The notes below the pieces were generated by a model. It was not told the DNA's origin, did no database searches, and worked only from the letters and a program-made list of their open reading frames with translations. Source: an uncultured virus (IMG/VR IMGVR_UViG_3300031455_000002) (Duplodnaviria; Heunggongvirae; Uroviricota; Caudoviricetes). From it: a stretch of DNA of 64,000 nucleotides. This document shows positions 17,824-43,631 of the stretch, in pieces (position 1 is the stretch's first letter; the number at the start of each line of letters is the position of its first letter). The position numbers and the translations under genes are program-made. The stretch lies in IMG/VR virus record IMGVR_UViG_3300031455_000002; one strand, 5' to 3'.

Positions 17824-18060
17824 GTGGCGAGCGCTCGCACAGGGATCTGGAGCGCGGTCGGCGCATTTGTCCTAGGGACCGTGGGTGCGCTCGCTGGGCG
17901 TGAGGTCGCCAAGGCACATCCTGGTGTTCGCTACGCCGTGCGGCGTCGGAGCGGTCACGTGACCGATGTTATGGTTGCCGGAGGCGCCGCGGGCGCTGTG
18001 GTCGGGGCTTTCATCGGAGGGGCGCTGGCTGGTGATACTCCGGCGTTGCCGCCGAAATGA
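17824..18060 (+). CDS. Small two-TM protein (holin or virion membrane candidate)
   Basis: Two Gly/Ala-rich hydrophobic segments; directly upstream of the endolysin. Confidence 0.55.
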   Translation: MASARTGIWSAVGAFVLGTVGALAGREVAKAHPGVRYAVRRRSGHVTDVMVAGGAAGAVVGAFIGGALAGDTPALPPK

Positions 18061-21978: not shown

Positions 21979-22425
21979 ATGACCGAAACACGCACCATCG
22001 AGCTGCCCCCAGCTCTTCCTCCCGTCACCACCCGCATGATCACGTCCAACCCTTCGTCGGACTCCGAGGATCTTTCGTGGGAGGCCGGCAAGGAGCATCC
22101 TCTCATCAAGGGCGCCGTGATCGTCCGCATGTACGTCATCCCTGACGGCGGCGGCGTGGACGTGTACTCCGTGCTCGCAGGAGGACGCGGAGCAACGCGG
22201 CATCACATTCCTGATTCGCGAATCCACATCACGGAAGAAGCGATGCCAATCGACGTTCTGATCGAAGAGCTCAAGGTGGCCGAGAGCACGGACGACGAGG
22301 AAGAGGAGGAAGAGGAAGAGGAAGAGGATGAAGTCATCCAAGCTGCGTCTTCTGCTCCTGTACCTACGTCTCCGGTCGCTCCGTCGATCGCTTCGGCCAC
22401 TCCTACGGCCACTTCGACGCCATGA
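21979..22425 (+). CDS. Hypothetical protein with poly-Glu tract
   Basis: MTETRTIEL start; DDEEEEEEEEEEDE. Confidence 0.6.
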   Translation: MTETRTIELPPALPPVTTRMITSNPSSDSEDLSWEAGKEHPLIKGAVIVRMYVIPDGGGVDVYSVLAGGRGATRHHIPDSRIHITEEAMPIDVLIEELKVAESTDDEEEEEEEEEEDEVIQAASSAPVPTSPVAPSIASATPTATSTP

Positions 22426-24158
22426 TCAAAGAAGGGCTCGTCCGAATGCCTCCGAAGAAGAAGACGGAAGGGGAGCGTCGCGCTGAGAAGCGAGTGATGG
22501 TGCAGCAGGATCAGAGCGAGATCCTGGAAGAGGTCGGTGCGGAGCTCGACGAAGAGACGGGCGAGCTTCTCGTTGATGCCGAGCGTGTGCGAGAGATCGG
22601 TGCGGTCGACGTCGGGGCCGTCATCGAAAACCGTCGACAGAAAGAGTTCATCGACAAGAAACGAGGCGGCGAGAAGGTCACGTTCAACACCGACGATCCT
22701 CTTCAGAGGTACGAGATGTTGATCGCGACGTGGCCGCCGAACACGATCGACATCTACGTTCGGCGACTCACCGGGGCTGCGGCGCAGCACGTGATCACGA
22801 GCCGACCCAGATCCGGAACGGAGCTGTACGAAGCGATCAAGCAGCAGATCCATCGTGAGCATCCCGAGGCCGACTACGAGCTCAAATTCAACGACTCGAA
22901 CCACAAGGTGTGGCGTGGCACCGGGCGTATCACGATGCCAGATACGCGGCCGACGGGAGGTGCCTCCATGAACCAGACGTACTACCCCCAGCAACCTCCT
23001 CAGGCGCCGCCCGTCGTAACAGCGCCGGTCACGCCTCCTGTCGCTCCTCAGCAGCCGCAGGACATGAACGGCATGATGAACACGGTGCAGGGGATGTTCG
23101 AGCTGTTCCAACGGATGCAACCGAAACCCGAGCCTGCGGCGCCTGCGGCACCTCCGCCTCCGCCGATCATCCAGATGCCGCCGCAGCCTGCGGCGAACGA
23201 TCCCGCCGGACAGCTCGTGTGGATCCAGCAGATGTTCGAGATGTTCCAGAAGATGCAGCCGCCCGGCGCGCCTCCGGTTGCTGCGCCCGTTCCCGCGCCT
23301 GCGCCTGTCGTCGTTCAGCCACCGCCCCCGCCTCCTCAAGACAGCATGGCCAGCACGATGACCATGATGCAGCAGATGTTCGAGCTGTTTCAGAAGATGC
23401 AGCCTCAGCAACCGCAGCCTCAAAGGCGTCCGGCGTACTATCCGCAGGAAGACAGAGACCCGAGAGGCGAACGGTACAGAGAGGCGTACGAGCCTCGACG
23501 AGAACCGCGCGGATACGATCCTCGAGACCCACGCGGATACCCGCAACATCAACCTCCCCCTCCTCCCCGCACGCCAGCGGACGAGCTTCGTGACGCGATG
23601 TCGGTCATGCGCACGACAATGCAGAGCTTGCAAGAGTTCCAAGCGATGCTTCCTCAGCAACAGCAGCGACAAGAACCCGTTGCTCAAGGTGTCGACGATG
23701 ACGACGACAGTCCGATCCAGATGGTCGAAGCTGGTCCTGCGAAGCTTGTGTTCGATCGGTCGAGCGGAGACCTCCGCACGATAGAGAGCCTCGGAGCGAA
23801 CCTACCGACCGCCTTCAAGTGGGTCGGAGAACAACTGCAAGAACTCAGCAAATCGCAGCAACGGGCACAAGGTCAGACACGTCAACAGCTCCCTCCCGGG
23901 TTCGTCGAGGTGACGCCCGGGTACGAGCCCCCTCCAGGGTACGTCGCGGTCTCGATCGAGCAGGAGGAACGGTTGCCGCCGCCTCCGGAGCGGATGCCGC
24001 CGCCCGTCCGTCAGCAGGCCCCGCAGGCGCCCCAGCAGGCGTGGGGAGCCCCTCCTGTCCAGACATGGGGAGCGCCCACTACGCCGGCACCGCCGCCTCC
24101 TGAGGAACCGGAAGAAGTGGCCCCTTGGGGGGACCCACCTGATCAAGAGGAAGAGTGA
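22422..24158 (+). CDS. Large Pro/Gln-rich protein with internal repeats
   Basis: Three copies of QxMFE(L/M)FQ(K/R)MQP between Pro-rich linkers. Confidence 0.75.
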   Translation: MIKEGLVRMPPKKKTEGERRAEKRVMVQQDQSEILEEVGAELDEETGELLVDAERVREIGAVDVGAVIENRRQKEFIDKKRGGEKVTFNTDDPLQRYEMLIATWPPNTIDIYVRRLTGAAAQHVITSRPRSGTELYEAIKQQIHREHPEADYELKFNDSNHKVWRGTGRITMPDTRPTGGASMNQTYYPQQPPQAPPVVTAPVTPPVAPQQPQDMNGMMNTVQGMFELFQRMQPKPEPAAPAAPPPPPIIQMPPQPAANDPAGQLVWIQQMFEMFQKMQPPGAPPVAAPVPAPAPVVVQPPPPPPQDSMASTMTMMQQMFELFQKMQPQQPQPQRRPAYYPQEDRDPRGERYREAYEPRREPRGYDPRDPRGYPQHQPPPPPRTPADELRDAMSVMRTTMQSLQEFQAMLPQQQQRQEPVAQGVDDDDDSPIQMVEAGPAKLVFDRSSGDLRTIESLGANLPTAFKWVGEQLQELSKSQQRAQGQTRQQLPPGFVEVTPGYEPPPGYVAVSIEQEERLPPPPERMPPPVRQQAPQAPQQAWGAPPVQTWGAPTTPAPPPPEEPEEVAPWGDPPDQEEE

Positions 24159-24666: not shown

Positions 24667-25887
24667 GTGCGCCAGTACACCGTTCGACCGGGCGACTCTC
24701 CTGCAACGATTGCTGCCGAACACGCGGGCTGCCCTCGCTGCGCAAAAGACCTAGTCCGGGCGAACCCACACAAGCCCACCGTCGTCCACCCGAACGGTTA
24801 CGAGACCTTCGTCGAGCTCGTAGAGAACGAGACGCTCAACCTCCCTGACAAGTGGTTCTCCGCCGAGTTCGAGGCTCTCCCTCCCGTCTATTTCGCTGCT
24901 CTGCCGGCGGCAGACGGAGTGACTCCTTCGAGGCTCGGCGACCTAGCCGGTGGCGTCCTAGGTGACTTCGCCACCCTGGAGAACGCAGCGGCGCAGCTTG
25001 GTTCTCTCGCTTCGATGGGCGACGCCGACTTCGCGGCCAACGTCGACGCTGTCGCTGCCACGTTGGACCAAGCTGTCTCGGATGCGATTTCGAGTCAAGA
25101 GGCAGGGATCACTCGAGCTGCTACGGCTCTCGCTCGTCGTCTGCACGTTGATCTGGTCTCGGCCTTGGCAGCCGGAGACAGCGCCTCCGGGTTCAAAGTG
25201 CGTACCGACATCCTGCGTGCTCTCAGTGAGGGCCTCAGCGCCGCCAGGCGAGCGCTCGAGGCCAAGCAGCCTCCGATCCCTGTGTCGACCACGACGCCCG
25301 CTACGGTGACGCAGGTCGCAGCGATCGACCCGTGCTCGGCCGTGAACGTTACTGCCGTGTGCGCAGCTCAGGCGGCGCTCGGTATCACGGTCGATGGGAA
25401 GTACGGGGACGGGACCGCCGCTGCGGTACGTGCGCGTATTCCTGGGGCTCCTGTAGGGTGCTCACCTCGGCCTTCATGGTGGGCCCCCACCAACGTGAGC
25501 AACTGCCCTGGAGCCGGATCCATCGTTCCGGTGAAGCCGCCGCAGCCGGCTGATTTGCAGCTACCGATCGCGAAGAAGAGCGGCGGGATCTCGATGGGGA
25601 TGATAGCTGGGATGGCGGCGCTCGGAGCGGGAACGGTGGGGCTTGCGATCTATCTGACGAAGAAACCGAAGGTGAGCGCGGTCCCGCAGCGGACGAAACC
25701 GAAATCACGTCGCAAGTTCAAATCCGAAGCTTGGTACGTGGATCGTGAGAAGGACGGAGAGGTCGTGGGCGTCATCGGTCCTTTCGATACGAAGGATGCT
25801 GCGCACAGCGCCGTCAGGAAAAAGAAGAACTGGGCATCTTACGGGGATCCCTATCAAGGCATGGACGCGCACTATTCCTGGAGCTGA
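24667..25887 (+). CDS. LysM + peptidoglycan-binding + TM virion protein
   Basis: YTVRPGDSPATIAAEH...LVRANP; QAALGITVDGKYGDGT; TM helix and basic tail. Confidence 0.8.
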   Translation: MRQYTVRPGDSPATIAAEHAGCPRCAKDLVRANPHKPTVVHPNGYETFVELVENETLNLPDKWFSAEFEALPPVYFAALPAADGVTPSRLGDLAGGVLGDFATLENAAAQLGSLASMGDADFAANVDAVAATLDQAVSDAISSQEAGITRAATALARRLHVDLVSALAAGDSASGFKVRTDILRALSEGLSAARRALEAKQPPIPVSTTTPATVTQVAAIDPCSAVNVTAVCAAQAALGITVDGKYGDGTAAAVRARIPGAPVGCSPRPSWWAPTNVSNCPGAGSIVPVKPPQPADLQLPIAKKSGGISMGMIAGMAALGAGTVGLAIYLTKKPKVSAVPQRTKPKSRRKFKSEAWYVDREKDGEVVGVIGPFDTKDAAHSAVRKKKNWASYGDPYQGMDAHYSWS

Positions 25888-25889
25888 TC

Positions 25890-26549
25890 ATGATCGACAA
25901 GCCCGTAGAAGGTGTCGTAACGGACGCACGACCGCATCCTGCTGGTGCGAAGGGCGCGAAGATTTCGCTCAACGAAGTCGCTGAGCGTGCATGGAAAGCT
26001 CGTATGAGCCCGCGTGTTCGAGCTTGGACCACCCAGGAACTTGCCAAGGCCAACGCTTCTACTGCGGATCGGCGCAAGAAGGTGGAATGCATCCTTGCTG
26101 CGTACCGTGAGAAGGTTCCGTACGTACAAGATCCAGTGATGGGTGAGTTCATGGCAACCCCGGATCAGGTTCTTTGTCTAGACGAGGGAGGACTCTGCAT
26201 TGTCGGATCGGATTGCGACGAAGCAACGATCACGATGCTCGCTGCCATCATGTCGATCGGGATCCCAGGCATGGTGATCGGCAGCAGTCACAAGACTCCA
26301 GTCAACGTCCCCACGCACGTGTTCGGTGCGTTCCAGAACGAAGCCGGCAAATGGATCAAGTTCGACGGCACGACGAAACACCCGGTCGGCAAAGCGCCGC
26401 CGACGTTGCGTGAGTGGTGGGTCGAGCCCGGCAAGAAAGCGAAGCAGACCGGCGAAGGAGACTTCGTCGGAATGGCAGGATCGGGAACGCTGTCGGGAGC
26501 ATCAAAACTCCCAAGCACGTTCGATCTGCGCTATCCCGGCATCCGATAG
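25890..26549 (+). CDS. Transglutaminase-like Cys protease (candidate maturation protease)
   Basis: YVQDP...GSDCDE...THVF...WIKFDGT, giving a Cys-His-Asp triad. Confidence 0.8.
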   Translation: MIDKPVEGVVTDARPHPAGAKGAKISLNEVAERAWKARMSPRVRAWTTQELAKANASTADRRKKVECILAAYREKVPYVQDPVMGEFMATPDQVLCLDEGGLCIVGSDCDEATITMLAAIMSIGIPGMVIGSSHKTPVNVPTHVFGAFQNEAGKWIKFDGTTKHPVGKAPPTLREWWVEPGKKAKQTGEGDFVGMAGSGTLSGASKLPSTFDLRYPGIR

Positions 26550-26834
26550 TCCGACGTGTGTGATCCGACGGGCATCCCGTCGTCAGACAACACGAAAGAA
26601 TATCGACGTCTGATCTTCAGGCTAGATCGGCGTGTATCGCCACGATCTACGCTCGTAGCGAGTGCGTCGTAAGTCGTTGTTCTTATTGAGGTTGTCGCCC
26701 TGTGTCAGGTGCGACATTCACGACGGTCTGAGAGTGCGCATTCGTCGCTTCGTCCGCAAGAGTCGTGCGTTCGTTTCGTGCATTGTATTGACGCGGTGAT
26801 CCCCTAACTGGGACCTTAAGGGCCGCACCGTGAC

Positions 26835-28481
26835 ATGGGCCTCTACGACGACCGCTTGGCTTCGCTCAGTGAATCGCGCTCCCCGCGCGGTGCTGGGCGC
26901 CGAGCTCGCGTGCCTTCGCCCAAGCGATCTGCCGCACGTGTTCAATCGTTCCTGTTCGAACGAGACGCGGGATGGACGCCGATCAAGGCACGCGCGTGGG
27001 CTGAGGCTCAAGGCTACAGCCGAGGGAAGGTCCACGTCACAGACCAGCACGTTCGCATTCGCCAGTTCGGATCCGACGAAGGGGCGAAGATCCATAGGAC
27101 TGTGCCTTTCGGTCGCGGGATCCGCGCCGTAGTTGCACGAGAAGGACAAGGAAGCACAAGCATGGCCACTCCCCGCACCGTCAACGCCAGCCGCCGCAAG
27201 AAGACGACCCGTCGCCGCAAGAAGGCAGGCAAGCGCCGAATGCGAACAACGACCGTCGCTGCTCCGAAGCGTCGACGGAAGCGCAAGGTTCGGGCAGTCG
27301 CAGAGGCGCCCCGCAAGAGGCGCGCAGCGAAGCGGCGCCCAGCGAAGCGACGTCCGGCGAAGCGGAGGAAGACCAAGGCGTCCGAGGCATGGCGTGGAGA
27401 CACGGCCGGTCATCGGAAGGCGGCCAAGAAGGGTTGGAAGGGACGCAAGAAGTCAGATCGCATCAAGGCCAGGCGCCCGAAGCGTCGTCGGAAGGTTCGT
27501 GCGGTCTCGGAGGTCGTGCAGGCCCCCAAGAGGCGCCGCAGCCCGAAGCGTCGTCGGTCGAGCATGGTCATGGCGCCCAAGCGTCGCAGCTCGAAGCGTC
27601 GATCGCGCACGATGCGTGCTCCGATGAGCGGCGGAGGCGGCATCGGATCCATGGCCCTGAGTGTCGTCTCCGGCGGCTTCGGGTTCGTGCTGGCCGACGG
27701 TCTCGATCGTCTGCTCGCCACGTACAACCCTGCGGCCACCGAGCAGGACACGAAGGACGGGAAGTTCCGTTCTGACGGAGCCGGAACGTTGGGCAACGTG
27801 CTCAACGTCGGGTCACGCCCGGGTCTCATGCGTACCGGAGCCGCTGTCGGCGTCGTTGCGCTCCCGGCCCTCGGCGCGATGTACGTCAAGAACCGGACGG
27901 CGAAGACGGTGCTCACGGCAGCCGCCTTCGGCGCCGGGATCAACGGCTTCAAGCTGCTCTGGAACAACGCGATCATGCCGATGCTCCGTCCGAAGGACGC
28001 AACGCCTACGGAGCTCCAGAAGTCGGTCATCGCACGGCTCTACCCGTCGGAGGTTGCTGCGGCCATCAACCTGGCCAAGAAGAACGCCGACGGATCCGAG
28101 CGCATCCCGCAGACGAGCGTCTCGAGCGGTAGCGCTGCCGGCGCTCTGTCCGGTGTTCCTGGAGACGTCGGTCCGTTCGCTCTCTCGGGTCCCGGAGCGG
28201 ACTATCCGACGGCGGCCCAGGCGCTCGCACTAGCGGCTGGTGTCTCGAGCCCAGGAGCAGACTGGCCGACCGTGCAGCAGGCGCTTGCCAAACAGACGGG
28301 TCTGGTCGGAGACCAGTATCCGACCGTGGCTCAGGCGCTTGCCCAGCAAGCAGGACAGGTTGGCGCGGCATGGCAGCCGGGTCCGCCTTCGTCCCCCGGA
28401 CCGGGCCCGCAGCCGGCCGACGAGGCGTCCTGCGGATGTGCCGGGATCGATCCCTACTCGGCGTTCCTCGACGAGAACTGA
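26835..28481 (+). CDS. Arg/Lys-rich core-like virion protein with hydrophobic segments
   Basis: Long protamine-like tract; hydrophobic helices; three (Y/W)PTxxQALA repeats; lies directly upstream of the capsid candidate. Confidence 0.75.
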   Translation: MGLYDDRLASLSESRSPRGAGRRARVPSPKRSAARVQSFLFERDAGWTPIKARAWAEAQGYSRGKVHVTDQHVRIRQFGSDEGAKIHRTVPFGRGIRAVVAREGQGSTSMATPRTVNASRRKKTTRRRKKAGKRRMRTTTVAAPKRRRKRKVRAVAEAPRKRRAAKRRPAKRRPAKRRKTKASEAWRGDTAGHRKAAKKGWKGRKKSDRIKARRPKRRRKVRAVSEVVQAPKRRRSPKRRRSSMVMAPKRRSSKRRSRTMRAPMSGGGGIGSMALSVVSGGFGFVLADGLDRLLATYNPAATEQDTKDGKFRSDGAGTLGNVLNVGSRPGLMRTGAAVGVVALPALGAMYVKNRTAKTVLTAAAFGAGINGFKLLWNNAIMPMLRPKDATPTELQKSVIARLYPSEVAAAINLAKKNADGSERIPQTSVSSGSAAGALSGVPGDVGPFALSGPGADYPTAAQALALAAGVSSPGADWPTVQQALAKQTGLVGDQYPTVAQALAQQAGQVGAAWQPGPPSSPGPGPQPADEASCGCAGIDPYSAFLDEN

Positions 28482-28502
28482 ACCGTCCACCCCCCAAACA
28501 CC

Positions 28503-28541
28503 CGCCCCGGTAGGCCTCGAGCCCCGGGGTTGAGGTGTCAG
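28503..28541 (+). promoter_or_regulatory. Conserved 5'-UTR hairpin element, copy 2
   Basis: CGCCCCGGTAGGCCTCGAGCCCCGGGGTTGAGGTGTCAG; matches 2482-2521. Confidence 0.6.
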
Positions 28542-28596
28542 AAAGACCAAAGCTCGCGTCGGACCAAGAAACGGCGAGCTATCAGGAGAAGAAGAC

Positions 28597-29913
28597 ATGG
28601 CAACCAACAAAGTCGTTTCGCGCATGGCAGGACAGAAGAAGTACACGTTCCAGCGGGAGAAGCGCCGCGTGCCGTTCGGTCGCGGTCTCACCGTCGAGCA
28701 GGCGCAGTCGGGTCTCGGTGGTCACGAGGGAGGCGCTCTCGGCGCCGCCGACAAGTGCATCCGCTGCTCGTTCGGCAACATCCCAGTGATCGAGGAGGTC
28801 GTGTGGACGATTCCTCTGCCGCTCACGAGCTCCGAGGCGATCTCCGTCTTCGGTGAGACCGTGAACCTGCTCTCGGGTTCCTCGAGCGTTCCGGGTGTGG
28901 CGTCGATCGACTCGACGTTCCTCATCAACGGCATCCTCCAGACGGACATCTTCGCGCAGGGCATCGGCGTGCATGTTTTCTGTGAGCCGATGTCGTTCTC
29001 GACGATCGGCAACGCCTTCGCAGCGCCGGCACAGGACGTGGCAACACCGCCTTCGCCCGACGTGTTCACGTCCAACGACATCGCGAACGGCGCACTCGGG
29101 ACGACGGTGACTACGGAGACGTTCGGTCCGGCCGTGTTCGAGTTCGGCAACCCCACGTGGCGCGCCGGCTGGAACTTCATCAATGCGTACATGTTCCTGT
29201 GGAAGACGAACCAGCGGGAGCTCGTGATGAACGAGCTGGCCGCCGACGTCTCCTACTTCGGGAGCTTCGCGGACGCAGCGGCGGCAGGTACCTCCGAGGT
29301 CGCCATCATCGAGTTCGTCGCGGCCGTCAACGCCGCGTACCGCTCGAAGGGAAGTGCCACGATCTTCCTCCCGGTGAGCTTCCGCAGGGTCGGCAGCGTC
29401 ACGACGGACGGACCGGGATCTGGCGTAGGCAACGGCAATCGAGGTCTCTTTCACCCGACGCGCGATTTCGATCTCGCGCCGGTCACGTGGGGCGGTCTCA
29501 GGTGGCAGGGCTACGGCTGCCGTGGGCAGATGTTCCGTCCCATCGAGAGCCCGTGCTTCATCGAGCGCGGTATCCCGATCGGTATGTTGTTCCAGTCGCA
29601 GGACGCCGTGCATCAGGCGCTCATGCTCGAGGCTCTCACGATCGACAACGATCCGTTCGGCACGAACGTGTCGCCCGACGAGAACCTTCTTGTCACGACT
29701 GCCACTGGCACTGCCGTCATGCTGGAGCAGACGCTGGATGCAACTCCTGCGTACGCTCCTCAGGTGGTCAACGTCTCCCGCCAGACCTTCAAGGGCGGCA
29801 TCCTCAAGATCGGCATCAAGATCAAGGGGTGGGAGTTGCCCGGCGGCTGGAAGGCTTGGTGCTCGGAGAACATTCTGAACATGGTCGGTCCCGAAGCGGC
29901 TGTCCGGAACTGA
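28597..29913 (+). CDS. Putative major capsid protein (jelly-roll candidate)
   Basis: AGGAG RBS, strong codon bias, beta-strand-rich, followed by a terminator, structural gene context; fold not verified. Confidence 0.6.
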   Translation: MATNKVVSRMAGQKKYTFQREKRRVPFGRGLTVEQAQSGLGGHEGGALGAADKCIRCSFGNIPVIEEVVWTIPLPLTSSEAISVFGETVNLLSGSSSVPGVASIDSTFLINGILQTDIFAQGIGVHVFCEPMSFSTIGNAFAAPAQDVATPPSPDVFTSNDIANGALGTTVTTETFGPAVFEFGNPTWRAGWNFINAYMFLWKTNQRELVMNELAADVSYFGSFADAAAAGTSEVAIIEFVAAVNAAYRSKGSATIFLPVSFRRVGSVTTDGPGSGVGNGNRGLFHPTRDFDLAPVTWGGLRWQGYGCRGQMFRPIESPCFIERGIPIGMLFQSQDAVHQALMLEALTIDNDPFGTNVSPDENLLVTTATGTAVMLEQTLDATPAYAPQVVNVSRQTFKGGILKIGIKIKGWELPGGWKAWCSENILNMVGPEAAVRN

Positions 29914-29932
29914 ATACCTGACCCGGTAGCAG

Positions 29933-29975
29933 ACGAGTGGCGTGGCGAAAGGCGCCGCGCCACTCGTTTCGTTTT
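29933..29975 (+). terminator. Rho-independent terminator
   Basis: ACGAGTGGCGTGGCG-aaagg-CGCCGCGCCACTCGT followed by TTCGTTTT. Confidence 0.8.
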
Positions 29976-29999
29976 CAGACCTAGGAAAGAAGGCTCACT

Positions 30000-30599
30000 T
30001 TGGAACCAAGATACGCAGACGTGAGGGCGCTCGCGATGTACGCCCCGAAGATCGCGTACGGGATGATCGTGGGCGTCCCCCGGGTCCCGTTCGTGAACGA
30101 GATCCCCATCCAGTTCTCCTCGAGCGCCGTCAATGCGTCGCCGATCGTGCAGAGCTTCCAGAACAACATCTCGCAGGACACGTTGATCGAGCGCGTCTCG
30201 TTCGGGATTTCGCAACCGAACACGTTCCCTGGAAGCCCGTTCCAGAGCACGTACTTCAATCAGTTGAAGCAGAGCGGCCAGACCGGGATCGGCATTCAGA
30301 TGCAGGTCTTCGGCGGACCGAAGTACGCGATCAACGACACGTACACGGATCTCGGTCAGCTCCTCGACGTGTTCGCGATGACGTGGCCAAACGGGTGGCC
30401 GCTCGCGAAGCAGAGCAACGTGAGCGTGAGCGCGGTGCTGCTCCAGACGCCGGTTAGTGTGCCGGTGGATGTGACGTTGACGTTCCTTGGATGGCAAAAC
30501 CTCGACAAGGCACTCGATGATCTCAGCGCCGATGAATGCAGGAATCGTCTCAAGGCGTTCGGTATCGAAGTTCCCAACCTCGGAGATGTGAACCTATGA
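30000..30599 (+). CDS. Putative second/minor capsid protein
   Basis: Beta-rich; NNISQDTLIERVSF echoes NGILQTDIFAQGIG of the capsid candidate. Confidence 0.5.
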   Translation: MEPRYADVRALAMYAPKIAYGMIVGVPRVPFVNEIPIQFSSSAVNASPIVQSFQNNISQDTLIERVSFGISQPNTFPGSPFQSTYFNQLKQSGQTGIGIQMQVFGGPKYAINDTYTDLGQLLDVFAMTWPNGWPLAKQSNVSVSAVLLQTPVSVPVDVTLTFLGWQNLDKALDDLSADECRNRLKAFGIEVPNLGDVNL

Positions 30600-30811
30600 A
30601 CTGGTACATGCTTCAGTTTCCCAAACTCCCTATCCAGATCCCTGGAATGAAGACGCACACCATGTTCTACGCCGAGACCGACGTATTCATGCTCGTGCAG
30701 TTGGCCCTCAAGGCCGGGATCGTGCCGTCAACCATCCAAGGTATCCCGATCGCGGGAGCTGCCCTCTACGAGTACACCCCGAGCGGGTGGAGACTCGTGT
30801 ACCAGTTCTGA
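30596..30811 (+). CDS. Small protein, paralog 1
   Basis: MNWYML...TMFY...LYEY...W. Confidence 0.6.
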   Translation: MNWYMLQFPKLPIQIPGMKTHTMFYAETDVFMLVQLALKAGIVPSTIQGIPIAGAALYEYTPSGWRLVYQF

Positions 30812-30818
30812 GGCGATC

Positions 30819-30998
30819 ATGAACTGGTACCTAATCAAAAGCAGCGGACACCAATCGATGATGTTCTATGGAGACCCCACTCTCCCAATACTCGTGTCGG
30901 CGTGTCTTCGTACGAACCCTGCCAGCCCATGGGGATCAGGTTTCATCGATGTGTACCAGTGGGGATCTGGTACCTGGCAACATATCAATCAGGTCTGA
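30819..30998 (+). CDS. Small protein, paralog 2 (absent from the ORF track)
   Basis: MNWYLI...MMFY...VYQW...W. Confidence 0.6.
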   Translation: MNWYLIKSSGHQSMMFYGDPTLPILVSACLRTNPASPWGSGFIDVYQWGSGTWQHINQV

Positions 30999-31001
30999 TT
31001 C

Positions 31002-31889
31002 GTGAATAAAAGCCCCTCCAACGTCCTCAACCTCCAGCGGCACCCCGACGGTCCGATGGCGGCGATGCGTTCGGTGAGGCACGCGGGTCGGTACGAGGTC
31101 GTAACCGTCGGCCGGAATCCCGAGTTCGAGTTCATCGGGAGCGACCCGTACAACACGAACGTCGGAACCGGCCTGGTCATCCCGAGCACTCCTAGTGCAG
31201 ACATCGGTGGAGCTCGCTATCTGTTTCTTCTCGCTCGAGCGAGCTTCGGAACCGGTGAACAGAGCCCGACGATGGAAGGCGCACGCCTCGTCGGGATCCG
31301 TCAGTACGTGGATCTCGTCGCGCGCATCCCGGCACGAACGGCGCCTCTCGCCACCGACTCGGGTCCGCCCGAAGGCTCCACGGTCACGTTCCGCAAGGAG
31401 ATCGTGAGCCCGCTCTGGCACCCGTTCGATGGCGACATCTCCTGGCACGTGATGGTGATCGGAAAGACGCAGCGAGACACGCGCAACCCGCTGAATGCCG
31501 ACAGCGTCATCTTCCAGGACGCGAAGTCTCCTGCGCTCCTCTACCAGACGCAGGGCCCATACACGCCTCCGAACGGCGGTCGCCCATGGGGAGTCCCCAT
31601 CGGCGCGAGCCTCGGCAACATCCACGATCTGAGGTACCAGTGGCGCGAAGAACGCGCCGAGTACGTCTTCGATATGCCGATCCCGACACCGTGCGACGTC
31701 GCGTTGTTCGCGAGCGTTCGACAGAACGATCCAGCGTTGAACCCGACCATCGACTCCGAGGATTGTGGGTTCTTCGGCGCGCTCGGTCCCGAGGATCAGT
31801 TCGTCGTCGCTTACCCGACGTTCGCTCAGTACGGATCGATCGCTGGAAGCCTAGTGTTCGAGGACAATCTCGGAAGGGAAGTCCCATGA
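31002..31889 (+). CDS. Putative virion structural protein (vertex/penton candidate)
   Basis: Beta-rich 295-aa protein in the capsid operon. Confidence 0.5.
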   Translation: MNKSPSNVLNLQRHPDGPMAAMRSVRHAGRYEVVTVGRNPEFEFIGSDPYNTNVGTGLVIPSTPSADIGGARYLFLLARASFGTGEQSPTMEGARLVGIRQYVDLVARIPARTAPLATDSGPPEGSTVTFRKEIVSPLWHPFDGDISWHVMVIGKTQRDTRNPLNADSVIFQDAKSPALLYQTQGPYTPPNGGRPWGVPIGASLGNIHDLRYQWREERAEYVFDMPIPTPCDVALFASVRQNDPALNPTIDSEDCGFFGALGPEDQFVVAYPTFAQYGSIAGSLVFEDNLGREVP

Positions 31890-32167
31890 GCAGATTGGGA
31901 GCAGGCGCAGGAGCACTGACCTTCGGTTTCGTCGGAGCGTTGCTCGGCAACGCCATCGGAGCGCACGTGCGAGGGCGTTCGGCTATCGCCTCGGGCGTGT
32001 CGCTCAATTCGGATGAGGAGCAGCTCGGGACCGGTGTCGGCGGAGTGCTCGGGATCTTGGTCGGTGCGGCGGTCGGTGCTGGATCTCCCACGGCGTCGTG
32101 TCCGACGAACCAGGCAGGGATCTCGGGTGCGGACATGTACCTCGGATCCAACGGAGCGTTCCCATGA
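31886..32167 (+). CDS. Small Gly-rich membrane protein
   Basis: Two TM segments; ends NGAFP. Confidence 0.65.
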   Translation: MSRLGAGAGALTFGFVGALLGNAIGAHVRGRSAIASGVSLNSDEEQLGTGVGGVLGILVGAAVGAGSPTASCPTNQAGISGADMYLGSNGAFP

Positions 32168-32583
32168 CCAACCAGGTTGTAGGGACAGCTCTCGGGCTCG
32201 GGTTTGCCGCTGGATCGGCTGCGGTTGGCGCCGCTGTTGCCGATCGACATCCTTCGGTAGGAGCGGTGGTTGGTGTCGGTGTTGGTATCGGTGCGCTTGT
32301 CGCAATGGCCGCATCCGCATGGGGAGTACCGTATTCTCGTTTCATCCAAGCACACCTGATCGGCACGGCAGTCGTAGGCGGAGGCGGAGCAATCGGCGCC
32401 GCTGTGGCACGCAGGAGCCCCGCAACAGGGGCTGCTGTCGGCGCTGCGACGGCAGCTCTGACCGGGAACCTGATCGCCGCCGTGTATGGTCCGATCAATC
32501 TCGACTCTTCCAAGAAGAACGGCGAACTCCAAGGCGCCGGCATCGGAACACGCTACGTCGTTCGTGATGGGGTGTTCCCATGA
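32164..32583 (+). CDS. Gly/Ala-rich multi-TM protein
   Basis: About four hydrophobic segments; ends DGVFP. Confidence 0.65.
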   Translation: MTNQVVGTALGLGFAAGSAAVGAAVADRHPSVGAVVGVGVGIGALVAMAASAWGVPYSRFIQAHLIGTAVVGGGGAIGAAVARRSPATGAAVGAATAALTGNLIAAVYGPINLDSSKKNGELQGAGIGTRYVVRDGVFP

Positions 32584-33263
32584 CCCCCGCCCAAGCTGCC
32601 GGGTTCCCCAACTTCGTCACCGACGTCCCTGTTCAGGGACCCACCGATCCAGACATGCGGGCGGCCGCCTGCTTCTACACCGAGAACATGTTGCCGAAGC
32701 ACCCCGAGTGCGTCGATTGTGAAGGAACAGTACCCATGTGGACCAAGCAGAACTTCGTCAGCCCTCGTCACTACCCTGGCCTCTCCGGTGAGCAGATTTC
32801 GCTCGGCGGACACGGTGCTCTTGGCTTCGCGATCGGCGATTCGGAGGTCTGGACGAAGCTCACTCAGCAACAGCAGACGTGGATCATCCAGTCACTTACG
32901 CATCTCAACAACCTGATCTACCAGAACACAGGTACGACGTGTCCGGACTGGGGTAACGCTCCAACGATCACCGGTCCTGCCAAATGCTTCCAGAGTTGGT
33001 TCAACGCGAACAAGATTGATCCGGTCACGCTCCGCACTGATGGGGTGTTCGATCAGAGCACGCTCGACGCACTTCTCACCGTTGCCCGGATCGATCCAGG
33101 TCAGTTTCCGACGCCATACCCGGGTGATCCGATCCAGGCTACTGCCGAAGAAGAGAAGAAGGGTCTGTCGAAGGGTGCGATGTACGGCATCGCAGCCGGC
33201 GGCGCACTCGTCGTGGGCGGGACCATCTGGGCAATCACCCGCAAGAAGAGCAAGAGGAGCTGA
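32580..33263 (+). CDS. Peptidoglycan-binding-like + C-terminal TM protein
   Basis: LRTDGVFDQSTLDAL; KKGLS-TM-RKKSKRS. Confidence 0.7.
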   Translation: MTPAQAAGFPNFVTDVPVQGPTDPDMRAAACFYTENMLPKHPECVDCEGTVPMWTKQNFVSPRHYPGLSGEQISLGGHGALGFAIGDSEVWTKLTQQQQTWIIQSLTHLNNLIYQNTGTTCPDWGNAPTITGPAKCFQSWFNANKIDPVTLRTDGVFDQSTLDALLTVARIDPGQFPTPYPGDPIQATAEEEKKGLSKGAMYGIAAGGALVVGGTIWAITRKKSKRS

Positions 33264-33265
33264 TC

Positions 33266-34579
33266 ATGTTCAAGATGTTCCATCGCGTGAAGCCCGGCGA
33301 GTCGCCGGCAATGATCGCGCGTCGCTACAACATCCCGGTCGCGCAGCTCATGGCGGCCAACCCCCACAAGCCGATCAAGCAGGTCGGGAACAAGCAGACC
33401 TGGCAAAGCCTCGTCTCGCGTGAGCCCGTGAAGATCCCGGCTGCCAACATGATCCAGGCCATTGCGGCTCGGGCAGCGGGCGCCGTGCACGGGCTCGGTG
33501 ATCCCGTAAGCGATCTGATCTACGCGCTCACGCAGGCAGGCGGTCCCTGCATTCAGGCGAACGCTGGATACGTCTGCGCGATCCAGCAAGCACTTGGACT
33601 CTCGATGGACGGAAAGTGGGGCAACGACACCTCCAAGGCCGCGCGAGTGTTCGTCTCGAACGCACCTCCGGGATGTCCCGGTCCGCCTTCTTGGTGGGGG
33701 ATCAAGGCGCAAGGAACCGCGGGACCCAAGTGCCCTTCGGTGCTGCCGACGATTCCGGTGGCGGCTCTGCCGCCGCCTCCTCAGACGGTGGGACCTCCGG
33801 GAGTGGTGATGCCGCCCACACCGGTCATGCCTCCGCCTCCGGTGATGCCGCCACCTCCAACGACCGTGGCGGTGCAGCCGGGAAATTCGGTGACCGATTT
33901 CGTGGTCGCGCTCATGCAGTCCGGAGGTCCCTGCAATCAGGCGAATGCCGGGTACGTCTGCGCGATCCAGAAGGCGCTCGGGCTCACCGTCGATGGCAAA
34001 TGGGGCAACGACACTTCGAACGCCGTGCGGCGCGTCGTGTCCAATGCGCCTCCCGGGTGCTCTCCTGCTCCCTCTTGGTGGGGAATCAAGGCACAAGGCA
34101 CCGCCGGGCCGAAGTGTCCTCCCACGTTCCCGACGATTCCGGGTGGCGGTGGCGGGATGGTTCAGCCGCCACCTCCGATTCAGCCGCCCCCGATCACGCC
34201 GGTGGTTCCCCCGCCTCCGGTCGTGCCTCCGCCGCCGCCTCCGCCGGTGTTGCCCCCGCCTCCGGTGGTCCCTCCGCCGCCGCCTCCGCCGCCTCGAGAC
34301 GAGCCGGAGAAGGACCAGCCTCCGATCATCGATGGTAGGCCCCAACCCGGCCAGCTCGTGACCACTTCCGAAAAGAAGGGTCTTTCCACCGGCGCACTCG
34401 TGGCCGGCGGCATCGGAATCGCCGCAGTGGTCGGGCTCATCGCGGTGGCCGCCAGCGGGGGCAAACGTTCGTCGATCACGAAGACGACGACCGTTCGGCG
34501 GTTGCCGGCACGACGGAAGCCGGCGAAGCGCAAGGCTCCGGCGCGCAAGAAGGCAACGAAGCGCAAGAAGAAGAAGTGA
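33266..34579 (+). CDS. LysM + two peptidoglycan-binding repeats + Pro-rich stalk + TM protein
   Basis: HRVKPGESPAMIARRY...LMAANP; duplicated CAIQxALGLxxDGKWGNDT module; histone-like basic tail. Confidence 0.85.
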   Translation: MFKMFHRVKPGESPAMIARRYNIPVAQLMAANPHKPIKQVGNKQTWQSLVSREPVKIPAANMIQAIAARAAGAVHGLGDPVSDLIYALTQAGGPCIQANAGYVCAIQQALGLSMDGKWGNDTSKAARVFVSNAPPGCPGPPSWWGIKAQGTAGPKCPSVLPTIPVAALPPPPQTVGPPGVVMPPTPVMPPPPVMPPPPTTVAVQPGNSVTDFVVALMQSGGPCNQANAGYVCAIQKALGLTVDGKWGNDTSNAVRRVVSNAPPGCSPAPSWWGIKAQGTAGPKCPPTFPTIPGGGGGMVQPPPPIQPPPITPVVPPPPVVPPPPPPPVLPPPPVVPPPPPPPPRDEPEKDQPPIIDGRPQPGQLVTTSEKKGLSTGALVAGGIGIAAVVGLIAVAASGGKRSSITKTTTVRRLPARRKPAKRKAPARKKATKRKKKK

Positions 34580-34608: not shown

Positions 34609-35148
34609 ATGTCTGAGTTCGTCGGCCGCACGGGATCGCACCGCGTCTACTCTTACCCGGAGGCGAGACGCGGTGGCGGCGTTCTGTCTCTTGCGCGGAA
34701 CTTCGCATACGGTCCCGCCGAAACGGAAACCCGGATTACGACGGACGGGACAGATGTGCCATGGGGTCTCATCGAAAGCGGGGAGGCCCCTGGGGTTTTG
34801 GTGCCGATCACACCAAGACTCAGCGGAATCGTTCGAGTCAGCGGTGTCATCACGATCGTGAACAACGACGACGCCAGACAGGACGTGCAACTTCAAGTTG
34901 GTGCATCAAACGGCGTGGATCCGCCTACTTTCTTTCCTCCTACTCAAGAGTTGAACTCAATCGCTGAAGATTTGGGTGAAGAGCCTGGACACGAAGCTAT
35001 TCCGTTCACGGCTCTCGTAACAGGTGCCGATGTCGGTATCCTTTTTTACATCCTGATCCGTTTGACAGCGAACGAGAACGACGCGCTGTCTCTTCTCGTC
35101 AATTCTTCGACGATCGATCTGCAAGAGGTTCCGCCCGCCACAGGGTGA
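34609..35148 (+). CDS. Fibre/spike-family protein 1
   Basis: MSEFVGRTGSHRVYSYP + LARNF beta domain. Confidence 0.7.
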   Translation: MSEFVGRTGSHRVYSYPEARRGGGVLSLARNFAYGPAETETRITTDGTDVPWGLIESGEAPGVLVPITPRLSGIVRVSGVITIVNNDDARQDVQLQVGASNGVDPPTFFPPTQELNSIAEDLGEEPGHEAIPFTALVTGADVGILFYILIRLTANENDALSLLVNSSTIDLQEVPPATG

Positions 35149-35159
35149 AAGGTACGGTC

Positions 35160-35654
35160 ATGGGTAGTTTCAGAGTCGGTCGCAAGTTCGCTTCACACGC
35201 CTACCCGGAGCCTCACCGTGGTGGAGGCGGTCCTGCGCCGCTTCTGGCGCGTGTCTTCGCAACCACGGAGGAAGACACATCGACCCCGGTCCCTACTGGA
35301 GATCCTGTTCTGATCCCGTGGGACGGAATCGGGGATGAAATACCTGTGACGCCGCTATCGACCGGCGTGCTCGAGGTTTCCGGAGTCGTTGTCCTCGAGA
35401 ACGAGAGCGAGACGGACACGTACATCATCACGGTCTTCGTGCTGATCGATGGCAACCCAATGGATCCTCCGACTAGCTCTCAGATGAGCATTCCTCCGGA
35501 ATCTACGATTTCGATTCCGTATCTGGCTCAAAGTGAAGCTCTTACTCCAGATACTCCAGTAGACGTATCGGTCGCTGTCATCTCGGACACGGATCCAGAA
35601 GGAGACGTCGACATCGTCAGCGCCACCGTCGCGATCCAAGAAGTGGCGGCCTGA
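35160..35654 (+). CDS. Fibre/spike-family protein 2
   Basis: MGSFRVGRKFASHAYP; paralog of protein 1 (VTP..G...VSGV, QEV). Confidence 0.7.
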   Translation: MGSFRVGRKFASHAYPEPHRGGGGPAPLLARVFATTEEDTSTPVPTGDPVLIPWDGIGDEIPVTPLSTGVLEVSGVVVLENESETDTYIITVFVLIDGNPMDPPTSSQMSIPPESTISIPYLAQSEALTPDTPVDVSVAVISDTDPEGDVDIVSATVAIQEVAA

Positions 35655-35657
35655 ACC

Positions 35658-35918
35658 ATGCGTGTCGTAATCCCGGAATCAGAGCTCGAGCGCCTGAAGT
35701 CGTGCGGTGACCACCTCACGTCTCCGTGGTGGGATGAGGGCGAACGTTCTCTCGTCTACCCTGACTGGGATGAGGCTGCTGCGAAGATGTCATTGAGTCG
35801 AGACGGTGCGCGCCGCCTGAAGTGGCTCGTACTCCACAAGATGGTCCCGACGACGTTGACACGGTACATGGAGCTGCGTCAGCAAGCCGCCAAGGCGACG
35901 GAGAAGACCGATGGGTGA
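35658..35918 (+). CDS. Hypothetical protein
   Basis: In operon. Confidence 0.55.
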   Translation: MRVVIPESELERLKSCGDHLTSPWWDEGERSLVYPDWDEAAAKMSLSRDGARRLKWLVLHKMVPTTLTRYMELRQQAAKATEKTDG

Positions 35919-36417
35919 GTTCAGGATAGGGCGTACTCACGCGCAACACTTCTATCCAGTACGGCGATTGGGCGGTGGTGACACCCCGGATCTCGCTCGC
36001 AATTTCGCTTCGACGTCTATGTTGAAGGACAATGAGTTCAGTAATGAACCTGTTTTCATCCAGTGGTCGTCTATCGGAACAGATCCGCCATACCCGACTG
36101 AGGTACCTATCACTCCTCTGTTCTCCGGTGTCATCGAGATTTCCGGAGTCTTGAACATCGACAACGAAGGCGTGGATCCGTATCACGTAATCATTCGTGT
36201 ATACGTGAACGAGATTGAAGTACCTGTGACGATGGGTTCTCAGACCACAATCGCCGGTGGATCACTCATCTCAATCCCGTTTCTTGCGCAAGTAGGCGGG
36301 CTGGATCTCGACGAAGAAGCTCTGGTGACCGTGTCTGTTGAGACGGCAGAAGCTCAAGAAGGTACATCCTACAACAGCGCGCAGATGGCTGTGCAGGAAG
36401 TCGTTCCGAACCCTTGA
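35911..36417 (+). CDS. Fibre/spike-family protein 3
   Basis: MGEFRIGRTHAQHFYP; paralog of proteins 1 and 2. Confidence 0.7.
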   Translation: MGEFRIGRTHAQHFYPVRRLGGGDTPDLARNFASTSMLKDNEFSNEPVFIQWSSIGTDPPYPTEVPITPLFSGVIEISGVLNIDNEGVDPYHVIIRVYVNEIEVPVTMGSQTTIAGGSLISIPFLAQVGGLDLDEEALVTVSVETAEAQEGTSYNSAQMAVQEVVPNP

Positions 36418-36614
36418 TGGAGATCACCATGGAACGCCGTAAGATCCACGAAGAAACTCTCCAGTGCGGTTACCGCAAATGCTGTCCGACCGTGAAGATC
36501 TTCGACGACGGCTCGATGGAGCTCTCCGACGACGACCCCGAGATCGGTTCCGTAGGCACGATCAAGCTCTGGCCTGAGGTCGTTCAGCGACTCCTCGAGC
36601 TGGCGAAGAAGTAG
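36414..36614 (+). CDS. Small Cys-containing protein
   Basis: CGYRKCCPTV. Confidence 0.55.
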   Translation: MMEITMERRKIHEETLQCGYRKCCPTVKIFDDGSMELSDDDPEIGSVGTIKLWPEVVQRLLELAKK

Positions 36615-36625
36615 GAAGAACCACC

Positions 36626-37852
36626 ATGAGCCACCTAATTGGACGCGGGCAGTACAAGAGTGAGACGTATCCAGGGCGTGGAGCGTCCGGCGGTAGCGGC
36701 GGCTCGATCGTGCCTCTATCGAGGCAGCGATTCATCGACGGTGGAACCGTGCAGTCCGGGCGAGACGGATCGGTTGCGCGACCGTTTCTCACGATCGCTG
36801 AGTTCACTGCATCGCGACCGAACGGCACCGTCCCGGACAGGCGGAACAACTACGTCGGGTGGGTCACGCCAGCGATCGACGGATACACGGGGGTGATCAG
36901 CCTCCCACCGAATGCTTCAACGGAGCTGCGAGCTGATTCGTACTCGAACCCCACCCTTGGCACGTCTGTCACCGGAAACGTGTTCTGGTCCAATCTAGCG
37001 TTACCCGAGACCACGGGACCTGTTACCGCCGCATTGCACAACGTGTCTGTAGTGGGGCAGGTTCAGATCACCGACGTAGCCGAGTCTCCTATCTCGCAGT
37101 TCTTCTTCAGCGCCGACGAGTCTCTCTTCTTGGGAGCGATCTTATCTGGTGGTTTCGTCTCGAATACGACCGTGCAGTTGTCGTTTGCTTCCTTCCTCAA
37201 CGTGAGCGTGGACAACTCGATCGATGCGGGCACTTCTGTAGACAGCGCGGCCGTACTACTTCAAGGAAGCAATGTCATAGGAGGTATCGCAGCCAGACAG
37301 TTGAACTGCTACAACTCCGTACTGGCCGTAGCAACCATCGAGGCGCGCGAAGCGACGTTCGTAGATACGAGTTTCGAGTCGGGAACCAATCCTTTACTGA
37401 TGGTCGTCATTGCCCCTCCAATTTTCGACGGACCCTCCTGGGCGTCGTTCATCCGAGCTGGCGGGACACGAAGCGCTGCGACCGCAGTCCTGGTCACTGG
37501 TGGGTACAACGGAGCAGAAGTTGCGGGAGCGGCGTTGACTGCGGCTTCTACGAGCGTCGCACTCAATGGGGCAGGAGCGACGGCCGGTTTCACGGGATCA
37601 AATTCCGGGAACCACTACTCGACGGCGGACGTCACACCGACCAGCGTCACTCTTTTGACGGCTGGGGCACTCCCAGGAGACACATTACTCATCACCAGGA
37701 CCGACCTCGTGGCAAGCGTGCTCGCGGTGATCAACGGCGGCCCTGGTGCCGGCACGATAGGATCGATCCCTACTTCTCATCGCGGGTCCGTGCTCGCTCG
37801 ATTCAACGGAACGGACTGGTTGTTCGAAGCGGGAGGATCACTCGCTGCCTGA
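36626..37852 (+). CDS. Fibre/spike-family protein 4 (beta-helix-like)
   Basis: MSHLIGRGQYKSETYP; DGSVARPFLTI motif. Confidence 0.7.
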   Translation: MSHLIGRGQYKSETYPGRGASGGSGGSIVPLSRQRFIDGGTVQSGRDGSVARPFLTIAEFTASRPNGTVPDRRNNYVGWVTPAIDGYTGVISLPPNASTELRADSYSNPTLGTSVTGNVFWSNLALPETTGPVTAALHNVSVVGQVQITDVAESPISQFFFSADESLFLGAILSGGFVSNTTVQLSFASFLNVSVDNSIDAGTSVDSAAVLLQGSNVIGGIAARQLNCYNSVLAVATIEAREATFVDTSFESGTNPLLMVVIAPPIFDGPSWASFIRAGGTRSAATAVLVTGGYNGAEVAGAALTAASTSVALNGAGATAGFTGSNSGNHYSTADVTPTSVTLLTAGALPGDTLLITRTDLVASVLAVINGGPGAGTIGSIPTSHRGSVLARFNGTDWLFEAGGSLAA

Positions 37853-37866
37853 TTTCGACTAACTAC

Positions 37867-38139
37867 ATGTCGCACTTGTTCCTCATCACTGCCCTCATCG
37901 GCGCAACGCTCCTCATCGTTCGAGGAACGATTCTCGCTCCAGTGCGCAAGCTCTGGCCTGCGCTCTTCGGGTGCGCCCAGTGCGTCGGGACGTGGGTCGG
38001 AGTCGCCGCAGGTGCCAGCAGCATCGTCTCGGTTGGTCACGGACGGATCCTAGACGCCGTGATCGTTGGTGCCGCCACGAGCTTTCTATCTCTGCTCGCT
38101 GATGGTGTACTATTGAAGCTCCTGGGGGATCCTTCATGA
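37867..38139 (+). CDS. DUF1360-like membrane protein
   Basis: LFGCAQCVGTWVG; hydrophobic. Confidence 0.6.
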   Translation: MSHLFLITALIGATLLIVRGTILAPVRKLWPALFGCAQCVGTWVGVAAGASSIVSVGHGRILDAVIVGAATSFLSLLADGVLLKLLGDPS

Positions 38140-43616: not shown

Positions 43617-43631
43617 GAAAGGAAACTCCCG

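Follow-up and report, generated by a model that had tools for sequence, protein, structure and literature searches.

To our knowledge, all cultured bacterial viruses above about 30 kb are tailed phages that pump their DNA into HK97-fold heads. Members of the Tectiviridae (PRD1, PR772) have genomes of about 15 kb, and the combination of a jelly-roll shell, membrane proteins and a protamine-like DNA binder is a design known so far only from viruses much smaller than the one described here. The closest architecture in print is that of the Portogloboviridae (Sulfolobus polyhedral virus 1, SPV1; PDB 6oj0), followed by the sphaerolipoviruses, represented in our comparison by the vertical single jelly-roll viruses HHIV-2, HCIV-1, SH1 and Thermus phage P23-77, and by PRD1-like viruses. 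Here we analysed 64,000 nt of an uncultured virus (IMG/VR record IMGVR_UViG_3300031455_000002; this whole stretch is called the window) and focused on the gene block at positions 24667-34579, which is most likely the central part of the module that builds the virion of an uncultured bacterial virus from soil, with a genome of about 90-118 kb. Taken as a whole, the evidence is best explained by a tailless virus with a jelly-roll shell, a membrane and a protamine-like DNA core that forms by co-assembly, and we consider this explanation probable. Such a virus would be of a kind already known, the tailless, membrane-containing jelly-roll viruses, and possibly much more.

The window has a G+C content of 57-65% in 2-kb steps. 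All open reading frames (ORFs) that an earlier, sequence-only reading had named in the block were recovered on the plus strand at the same positions in the ORF list. Conservation was assessed by tblastn of the window proteins against 32 related loci, in which the gene for the protein of 438 amino acids (aa) is present in 32/32 by construction. The block contains the following features:

24667-25887, plus strand: 406 aa, LysM and peptidoglycan (PG)-binding-like, C-terminal membrane anchor and basic tail (28/32 loci)
25890-26549, plus strand: 219 aa, predicted transglutaminase-fold cysteine protease (28/32 loci)
26835-28481, plus strand: 548 aa, protamine-like (28/32 loci; 4/4 complete genomes compared)
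28597-29913, plus strand: 438 aa, predicted jelly-roll, major capsid protein candidate (most conserved gene of the family)
about 29929-29976, plus strand: intrinsic-terminator-like hairpin and T-rich tract (folding)
30000-30599, plus strand: 199 aa, candidate second shell or minor capsid protein (31/32 loci, median 65% identity)
30536-30811, plus strand: 91-aa ORF (0/32 loci)
30819-30998, plus strand: 59-aa ORF (from the ORF list only; outside the loci search set)
31002-31889, plus strand: 295 aa, predicted single jelly-roll, penton-like, candidate vertex protein (31/32 loci)
32098-32583, plus strand: 161 aa, Gly-rich (18% Gly) membrane protein (0/32 loci)
32580-33263, plus strand: 227 aa, Gly-rich C-terminal hydrophobic end (28/32 loci)
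33266-34579, plus strand: 437 aa, LysM, two PG-binding-like modules, Pro-rich spacers, membrane anchor and basic tail (20/32 loci)

Compared with the closest described systems, the block differs from each in several respects. SPV1 infects archaea and its circular genome measures 20 kb, whereas the virus studied here is bacterial and far larger; the two are not similar in sequence, they score weakly in structural comparison (rmsd 8.1 Å for the 438-aa model), and no membrane-anchored polybasic protein, transglutaminase-fold protease or LysM protein has been reported for SPV1. Only one barrel of the tectiviral P3 protein aligns, and neither an FtsK/HerA-type ATPase nor a protein-primed polymerase was found here. 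In adenoviruses, the Arg-rich proteins pVII, V and pre-mu condense the genome within a jelly-roll capsid and are matured by a viral cysteine protease that cuts at sites containing Gly. The likeness of the block to this arrangement is a functional analogy only: a polybasic protein, a predicted cysteine protease and a capsid candidate are adjacent, and a Gly-x-Gly motif is common to two of them. However, the adenoviral protease is of the adenain clan whereas the one here is transglutaminase-like, the polybasic protein here appears membrane-anchored, and adenoviruses have a packaging ATPase. Polyomaviruses and papillomaviruses enclose protein-condensed DNA by assembly, with no motor. Their VP1 and L1 proteins head the Foldseek lists of both structural models from the block (E 1.8e-3 to 2e-3, all below significance, TM-scores 0.09-0.23), but both groups are membrane-free viruses of eukaryotes with genomes of 5-8 kb.

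The genes of the block are real coding sequences on the plus strand, as indicated by their high G+C content at third codon positions (GC3), which at 0.84 in the 438-aa gene, 0.83 in the 199-aa gene and 0.78 in the 295-aa gene ranks among the highest of the window, together with protein-level conservation of most of them in the 32 related loci. The opposite strand also has long ORFs, which are shadow frames of the sort that G+C-rich coding DNA usually produces. A Shine-Dalgarno-like motif was found before 44 of the 104 window ORFs, compared with 19% at random positions. At least 8 ORFs between 24.6 and 40.6 kb contain a hydrophobic segment in a simple Kyte-Doolittle scan. The Gly-rich membrane proteins proposed for the end of the block were recognised in the 161-aa and 227-aa products, while for the 161-aa ORF, as for the 91-aa ORF, tblastn found no relative in the 32 loci. 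The 438-aa gene had been credited with a terminator of its own, and folding bears this out: 16 nt past the stop codon begins a G+C-rich hairpin of 16-17 bp (about 29929-29969), behind which a T-rich tract reaches to about 29976. The folding energy is -42 kcal/mol (z = -3.96), a value that 1 of 200 shuffles equalled. The hairpin was missed by a simple consensus terminator scanner.

In a collection clustered at 90%, homologues of the 438-aa protein at E <= 1e-3 number at least 405; among the 119 relatives listed, identities are 66-81% and none carries a functional name. In a library clustered at 50%, the family comprises 174 representative clusters, down to about 23% identity. The gene was located on 30 IMG/VR loci (contigs of 4-120 kb), and five of these records, of 109-118 kb, are rated 100% complete by CheckV, one of which (G003, 116 kb) has terminal repeats, measured directly as 87 nt. 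The expectation that the genome exceeds 64 kb is borne out by these complete relatives and by the window's own contig of 89,252 nt. In the tblastn comparison with the 32 loci, the conserved block extends from about 17.4 to 40.2 kb, and nearly all genes common to the window and 3 or 4 of 4 complete genomes lie within it; outside it, the shared genes comprise one for a 553-aa protein next to the integrase, one for a Sak4-like ATPase among the replication genes, and three more at 6.2-10.1 kb. Replication and accessory genes differ among the complete genomes. The lineage is a widespread uncultured virus family, with positions 24667-34579 inside its conserved core.

No match to the 438-aa protein was found in 50,697 GenBank phage records or 72,556 plasmid records, and full-text searches, whose reach excluded subscription journals and supplements, returned no description of the lineage. 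With neither a cultured or deposited relative in those records nor a published account found, the suggestion that the lineage is undescribed held up. The gene also occurs on a 5.8-kb contig of one Binatia metagenome-assembled genome (MAG) and on two contigs of one Polyangiaceae MAG. As for sequencing runs, the stretch was present whole in one DNA run labelled soil metagenome, from which it may originate, and in small shares in four others; no RNA run was listed.

The 438-aa protein was modelled from a 70-sequence alignment (A1), which gave a beta-rich structure with pLDDT 88.2 and pTM 0.86. Foldseek had been proposed as the check on this gene; the model is a jelly-roll sandwich, and an HK97 fold appeared in none of the lists. 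Nothing in the PDB reached E <= 1e-3. The best PDB row was papillomavirus L1 (2e-3), with IBDV VP2 and the STIV turret protein lower down, and the best BFVD rows were papilloma L1, hepevirus and CRESS-virus capsids (1.1e-3 and weaker), at very low TM-scores; the top matches were all beta-sandwich or jelly-roll proteins. They span residues from about 45-63 to 412-431 with only about 105-160 residues aligned, and the model aligns to one barrel of P3 only (chain residues 22-255). The protein thus probably has a single jelly-roll core into which large insertions are built, although a second, stacked barrel may be present. On this predicted fold, the 438-aa protein is the candidate major capsid protein of the virus.

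The 295-aa protein, modelled from a 25-sequence alignment (A2; pLDDT 71.1, pTM 0.72), also gave a jelly-roll sandwich, with polyomavirus VP1 (1.8e-3) in the top rows of Foldseek. Its single jelly-roll is penton-like, as the structural check proposed for this gene brought out, and this weak structural match makes it a candidate vertex (penton-like) protein. The 199-aa protein may be a further shell or minor capsid protein; an Atlas feature search, taken as a lead only, placed it near PM2 P2 domains (0.77) and the 438-aa protein near a polyoma VP1 cluster (0.88). At the sequence level, the 438- and 295-aa proteins matched nothing at E <= 10 among solved structures, the profiles A1, A2 and A3 matched nothing meaningful at E <= 1, and the 199-, 295- and 438-aa families are mutually unrelated in profile-profile comparison (probability <= 1%). 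The proposal of a jelly-roll virus stands as to the predicted folds and the lack of an HK97 fold, while its Varidnaviria- or Singelaviria-like placement, like membership in Portogloboviridae, is not established.

Upstream of the capsid candidate, the label of transglutaminase-like protease for the 219-aa product was confirmed at the family level, with a Transglut_core match in 18/18 members (E <= 0.1, best 7.7e-7). The window's own copy alone scored E 0.039 and 14.7 bits, under the 23-bit cut-off. Residues Cys109, His143 and Asp159 are invariant in the 18 sequences (alignment A4). The profile matches and the invariant Cys-His-Asp triad together assign the protein, by prediction, to the transglutaminase-fold (PF01841) cysteine proteases or a related enzyme, and it is a candidate maturation protease. 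The A4 profile returned coiled-coil noise only when compared with solved structures. The next gene had been called a protamine-like core protein, and its composition agrees: the 548-aa product has a net charge of +76, of which about +61 falls within residues 101-250, and it is built in the order of a small N-terminal domain, an Arg/Lys arm, Gly-rich hydrophobic segments and a repeat tail.

A basic Gly-x-Gly motif lies 20-35 residues from the N-terminus throughout the capsid candidate family, even at about 25% identity. In the window, the same six-residue motif is found in the capsid candidate (28660-28690) and in the 548-aa protein before its Arg/Lys arm (27097-27125), and the pattern has 6 matches in the window proteins compared with a mean of 1.5 in shuffles. 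We speculate that the adjacent protease may recognise it as a place of processing or as an address. The LysM label given to the first gene of the block is supported by paralogy of the 406-aa protein to the 437-aa LysM protein (BLASTP E 7e-16) and by its C-terminal hydrophobic segment. Alone, the 406-aa protein shows weak LysM (E 0.21) and PG_binding_1 (E 0.041) matches, while the 437-aa protein matches Pfam LysM at 2.9e-6 and PG_binding_1 at 6.5e-6. In both, an N-terminal LysM is followed by PG-binding-like modules, then by a membrane segment at the C-terminal end and last by a basic tail.

The many membrane proteins and the membrane-anchored DNA binder of the block would also fit a pleomorphic or enveloped virus, in which a protamine-like DNA core is wrapped by a membrane and the jelly-roll proteins serve as matrix or surface proteins. 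The lack of a conserved packaging motor, together with jelly-roll matches that are weak and shared with non-capsid sandwiches, points the same way. Nevertheless, for both models the structural neighbours that rank best come from the shells and pentons of icosahedral viruses. Moreover, the 438-aa protein is very strongly conserved (the 66-81% identity over the 119 relatives listed) and its gene combines high GC3 with a terminator of its own, as would suit a lattice subunit made in large amounts. Hence we regard a pleomorphic particle as unlikely.

Downstream of the block, eight otherwise unrelated window ORFs share an N-terminal tag of about 16 residues with the consensus M-S-x-I-I-G-R-G-x-Y-A-x-E-T-Y-P, which on the 170-aa paralogues takes the variant form M-G-E-F-R-I-G-R ... 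Y-P. These ORFs and an untagged one among them are:

34609-35148, 35145-35654 and 35911-36417, plus strand: three tag-bearing proteins of about 170 aa
within 34609-36417, plus strand: 86-aa ORF without the tag
36626-37852, plus strand: tag-bearing 408-aa protein
38744-39937, plus strand: tag-bearing 397-aa protein, ice-binding-like beta-solenoid, candidate surface spike (Pfam Ice_binding 5.9e-46)
42987-43616, plus strand: tag-bearing ORF
43941-44624, plus strand: tag-bearing collagen-like ORF
49157-49972, plus strand: tag-bearing 271-aa ORF

At one of these positions the gene caller chose a minus-strand ORF (43539-44477); the plus-strand ORF 43941-44624, with the tag and collagen-like repeats, is likelier. 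Across the 32 loci the tag was found on 38 ORFs in 16 loci, compared with 1 match in reversed-sequence controls. All but one of the tagged ORFs in the loci are on the plus strand, and those printed with coordinates all lie downstream of the capsid candidate; loci without this tag may use another. In G003 it is carried by four ORFs with Gly-x-Thr collagen-like repeats. A membrane-protein tag of a second form was not found in the window. We infer that the tag serves for docking and would attach interchangeable spikes or fibres to the shell. An extra strand from the spike is inserted at strand G of the penton in HCIV-1 (PMC6414509).

The tag also bears on the question of whether the element is a virus at all. 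A plasmid or integrative element encoding a cell-surface or coat structure could account for the ParB, integrase and toxin-antitoxin genes, for structural matches that include the BclA exosporium protein and C1q/TNF-like domains, and for the collagen-like proteins of G003 with an N-terminal address tag, an arrangement reminiscent of exosporium targeting. However, a cassette of the holin-endolysin type is present, Pfam scans of the window and G003 revealed no conjugation or secretion genes, one relative contains an array of 28 tRNA genes, the plasmid records searched contained no match, and the +76 DNA-condensing candidate adjoins the most conserved gene. We therefore consider a non-viral element exceedingly improbable.

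The sequence-only reading had recognised no terminase, portal, HK97-type capsid, sheath or tape measure gene and no FtsK/A32 ATPase in the 64 kb. Profile searches of the 104 window ORFs (Pfam E <= 0.01; PHROGs E <= 0.001) led to the same result, with no match to a terminase, portal, capsid, sheath, tube, baseplate, tape measure or FtsK/A32 family. For G003, a crude GC3 heuristic called 169 ORFs; 133 were scanned with Pfam and 66 of the larger ones compared with PHROGs, and neither set gave a match to a terminase, portal or capsid family. Six-frame searches of the five complete records, which are independent of heuristic gene calls, gave 0/5 for Terminase_6N, TerL_ATPase, Phage_portal, Phage_capsid and Pox_A32. 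Terminase, portal or tail genes elsewhere on the genome had been named as what would contradict a tailless virus; none was found in the window or G003, and the six-frame terminase and portal results in the complete relatives agree. As for the marks of the established realms, at profile sensitivity neither the terminase large subunit and portal of Duplodnaviria nor the FtsK-HerA (A32-like) ATPase of Varidnaviria was found; an HK97 capsid gave no profile match, and both modelled candidates (438 and 295 aa) are predicted jelly-roll sandwiches.

Several individual matches were examined and set aside. An FtsK_SpoIIIE match in one of the five complete records (G001, 11.4 bits) sits in a 693-aa ORF without a P-loop and was rejected as an ATPase. 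A DUF87 match, likewise in G001 only, was rejected as a packaging enzyme of the family because no relative of it turned up in the window, in the other genomes or in the loci; the ORF in question (L062 1084-1674, minus strand) has a HerA-like P-loop N-terminus of ~95 residues followed by an Arg/Gly-rich frame, with a winged-helix-like continuation in another frame, and may represent a frameshift or a decayed gene. Six-frame Walker A scanning of G003 gave 3 matches, of which only a DinG-like helicase lies in an annotated ORF and two lie in short unannotated frames. The same scan of the window gave 4, of which only a UvrD-like helicase looks genuine; the pattern misses the Sak4 gene, so the scan is not exhaustive. 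PHROG 'tail fibre' matches in G003 were discarded as low-complexity repeats of a collagen-repeat protein, and a 'baseplate hub' match covers only the C-terminal part of that family.

These searches bear on two further explanations. In a highly divergent tailed phage, the jelly-roll proteins would be decoration, fibre or receptor-binding proteins, and jelly-roll domains are indeed common in tail fibres; the replication genes are of tailed-phage type, collagen-like proteins match PHROG tail-fibre families, and a 698-aa protein of G003 has a weak tape-measure PHROG match (E 1e-4). The collagen matches, however, reflect low-complexity repeats, the terminase, portal and capsid families tried gave no match in any of the five complete genomes in six frames, the core lacks a large conserved P-loop protein fit for a terminase, and its richness in membrane proteins is unlike a head-tail module, which makes a tailed phage very improbable. 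A true member of Varidnaviria (PRD1-like) or Singelaviria would require that its FtsK/HerA-type ATPase has diverged or is supplied otherwise. We rate this as quite unlikely, since the core contains no conserved P-loop protein, Pox_A32 scored 0/5, FtsK and DUF87 matches are confined to accessory ORFs in 1/5 each, the 438-aa model aligns to one P3 barrel only, which speaks for a single core with insertions more than for a canonical double barrel, and neither sequence nor profile searches linked it to a capsid protein of solved structure.

The tailless co-assembling virus that we favour can be described as follows. The 438-aa jelly-roll protein, on its predicted fold, would form the main shell, the 295-aa single jelly-roll protein may close the vertices like a penton, and the 199-aa protein could be a further shell component. 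The shell would cover a lipid membrane that houses the many virus-encoded membrane proteins of the block. From its composition, the Arg/Lys arm of the 548-aa protein, with its +76 charge, would condense the DNA while the hydrophobic segments tie it to the membrane. The transglutaminase-fold protease would mature precursors, perhaps at the basic Gly-x-Gly motif, and the two anchored LysM/PG-binding proteins may act on the cell wall at entry or exit. The eight tagged proteins would be exchangeable surface spikes or fibres docked on the shell for host recognition. Because no packaging NTPase is conserved at the profile level, we propose that the genome could be enclosed by condensation and co-assembly, with no pumping motor.

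Several points weigh against this explanation. Particle shape, membrane, packaging route and structural roles are predicted here from genes and models. Non-capsid jelly rolls (TNF, C1q, BclA, carbohydrate-binding modules and PHM) score equally well against the 438-aa model, and the 199-aa protein gave no PDB or Pfam match. In the penton comparison, we took chain 6h82_b to be the HHIV-2 penton protein VP9 because it starts at residue 40; the first 40 residues of that penton protein are reported to be disordered and the letters A-X and 'a' denote major capsid protein subunits (PMC6414509). The absence of a conserved FtsK/A32/HerA packaging NTPase from the family core holds at Pfam, PHROG and motif sensitivity only. 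The searches covered 64 of the 89 kb of the window's own contig, and genes were called by a crude GC3-based heuristic; the Pfam scan of G003 also left out 5 ORFs straddling the fetched pieces and 31 ORFs of <80 aa. As for the host, the 438-aa gene occurs in 1 of 401 genomes of the phylum of the Polyangiaceae MAG, namely that MAG itself, and no host was assigned.

More tentatively, and with considerable doubt, the lineage may be of realm or kingdom rank, apart from Duplodnaviria, Varidnaviria and Singelaviria, and consist of large (89-118 kb) temperate membrane-containing viruses of bacteria. Their jelly-roll shell would form, with no motor, around DNA already condensed by the membrane-anchored protamine-like protein, the transglutaminase-fold protease would mature them, and the tag would plug both spikes and collagen-like fibres into the shell. 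If the co-assembling virus is real, a common soil and sediment lineage with 90-118 kb jelly-roll, membrane-containing and protamine-like particles would break the rule that large bacterial viruses are tailed only, and the size range of tailless bacterial viruses would grow several-fold. The motor-less packaging of a long genome would become testable in bacteria, and virus-detection tools would gain new hallmark genes, with a 438-aa family of at least 405 members (90% clustering), none of them functionally named.

Other features of the window are the following:

17824-19252, plus strand: lysis cassette of a 78-aa membrane protein, a 264-aa endolysin and a 134-aa protein (Pfam, PHROG, hydrophobic segments)
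22422-24158, plus strand: 578-aa Pro/Gln-rich protein (26/32 loci, 4/4 complete genomes compared)
within 36414-38139, plus strand: conserved 66-aa Cys-rich protein and conserved 90-aa two-segment membrane protein
53496-54608, minus strand: tyrosine integrase (Pfam Phage_integrase 2.9e-20)

The lysis cassette consists of three overlapping reading frames; the endolysin combines PG_binding_1 and Peptidase_M15_4 (Pfam, with a PHROG endolysin match), and the 134-aa protein has an N-terminal membrane segment. The 578-aa core protein contains 16% proline, a conserved N-terminal domain of about 150 aa and three copies of a helical Met/Phe/Gln-rich motif separated by Pro-rich spacers. It has no Pfam or PHROG match, and we would guess that it is scaffold-like. 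The integrase points to a temperate or integrating lifestyle. Beside it lies the gene for a beta-rich 553-aa protein with an internal repeat (54640-56301, plus strand). This protein has no family match and is conserved at 42-50% identity in 3 of the 4 complete genomes compared; in G003, too, the homologue adjoins the integrase. A Walker-A-like string in the 553-aa protein was judged not genuine. Further genes identified with Pfam and PHROGs encode a Dam methylase, a ParE-like toxin, a UvrD-like helicase and Sak4. The toxin gene (ParE/RelE-like) and a helix-turn-helix antitoxin-like gene are located at 10130-10435 (plus strand) and 47409-47720 (minus strand). Pentapeptide and rhomboid genes at the left end of the window recur in G003, hence no host flank is seen in the window.

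A full-length tmRNA gene was detected at 56625-56992 on the minus strand (Rfam RF00023, 78.2 bits, model positions 1-374 of 374), with the tag peptide ANDNAIDQALAA. It lies 2 kb from the integrase, inside the viral genome, and may either be carried as a gene of the virus or mark the attachment region; scans of four complete relatives found none. Among the complete relatives, no tRNA gene was called in G004 or G005, two were called in G003 (tRNA-His and one of undetermined type), and the array of 28 tRNA genes occurs in G001 at about 68-76 kb (L042 8054-15663).

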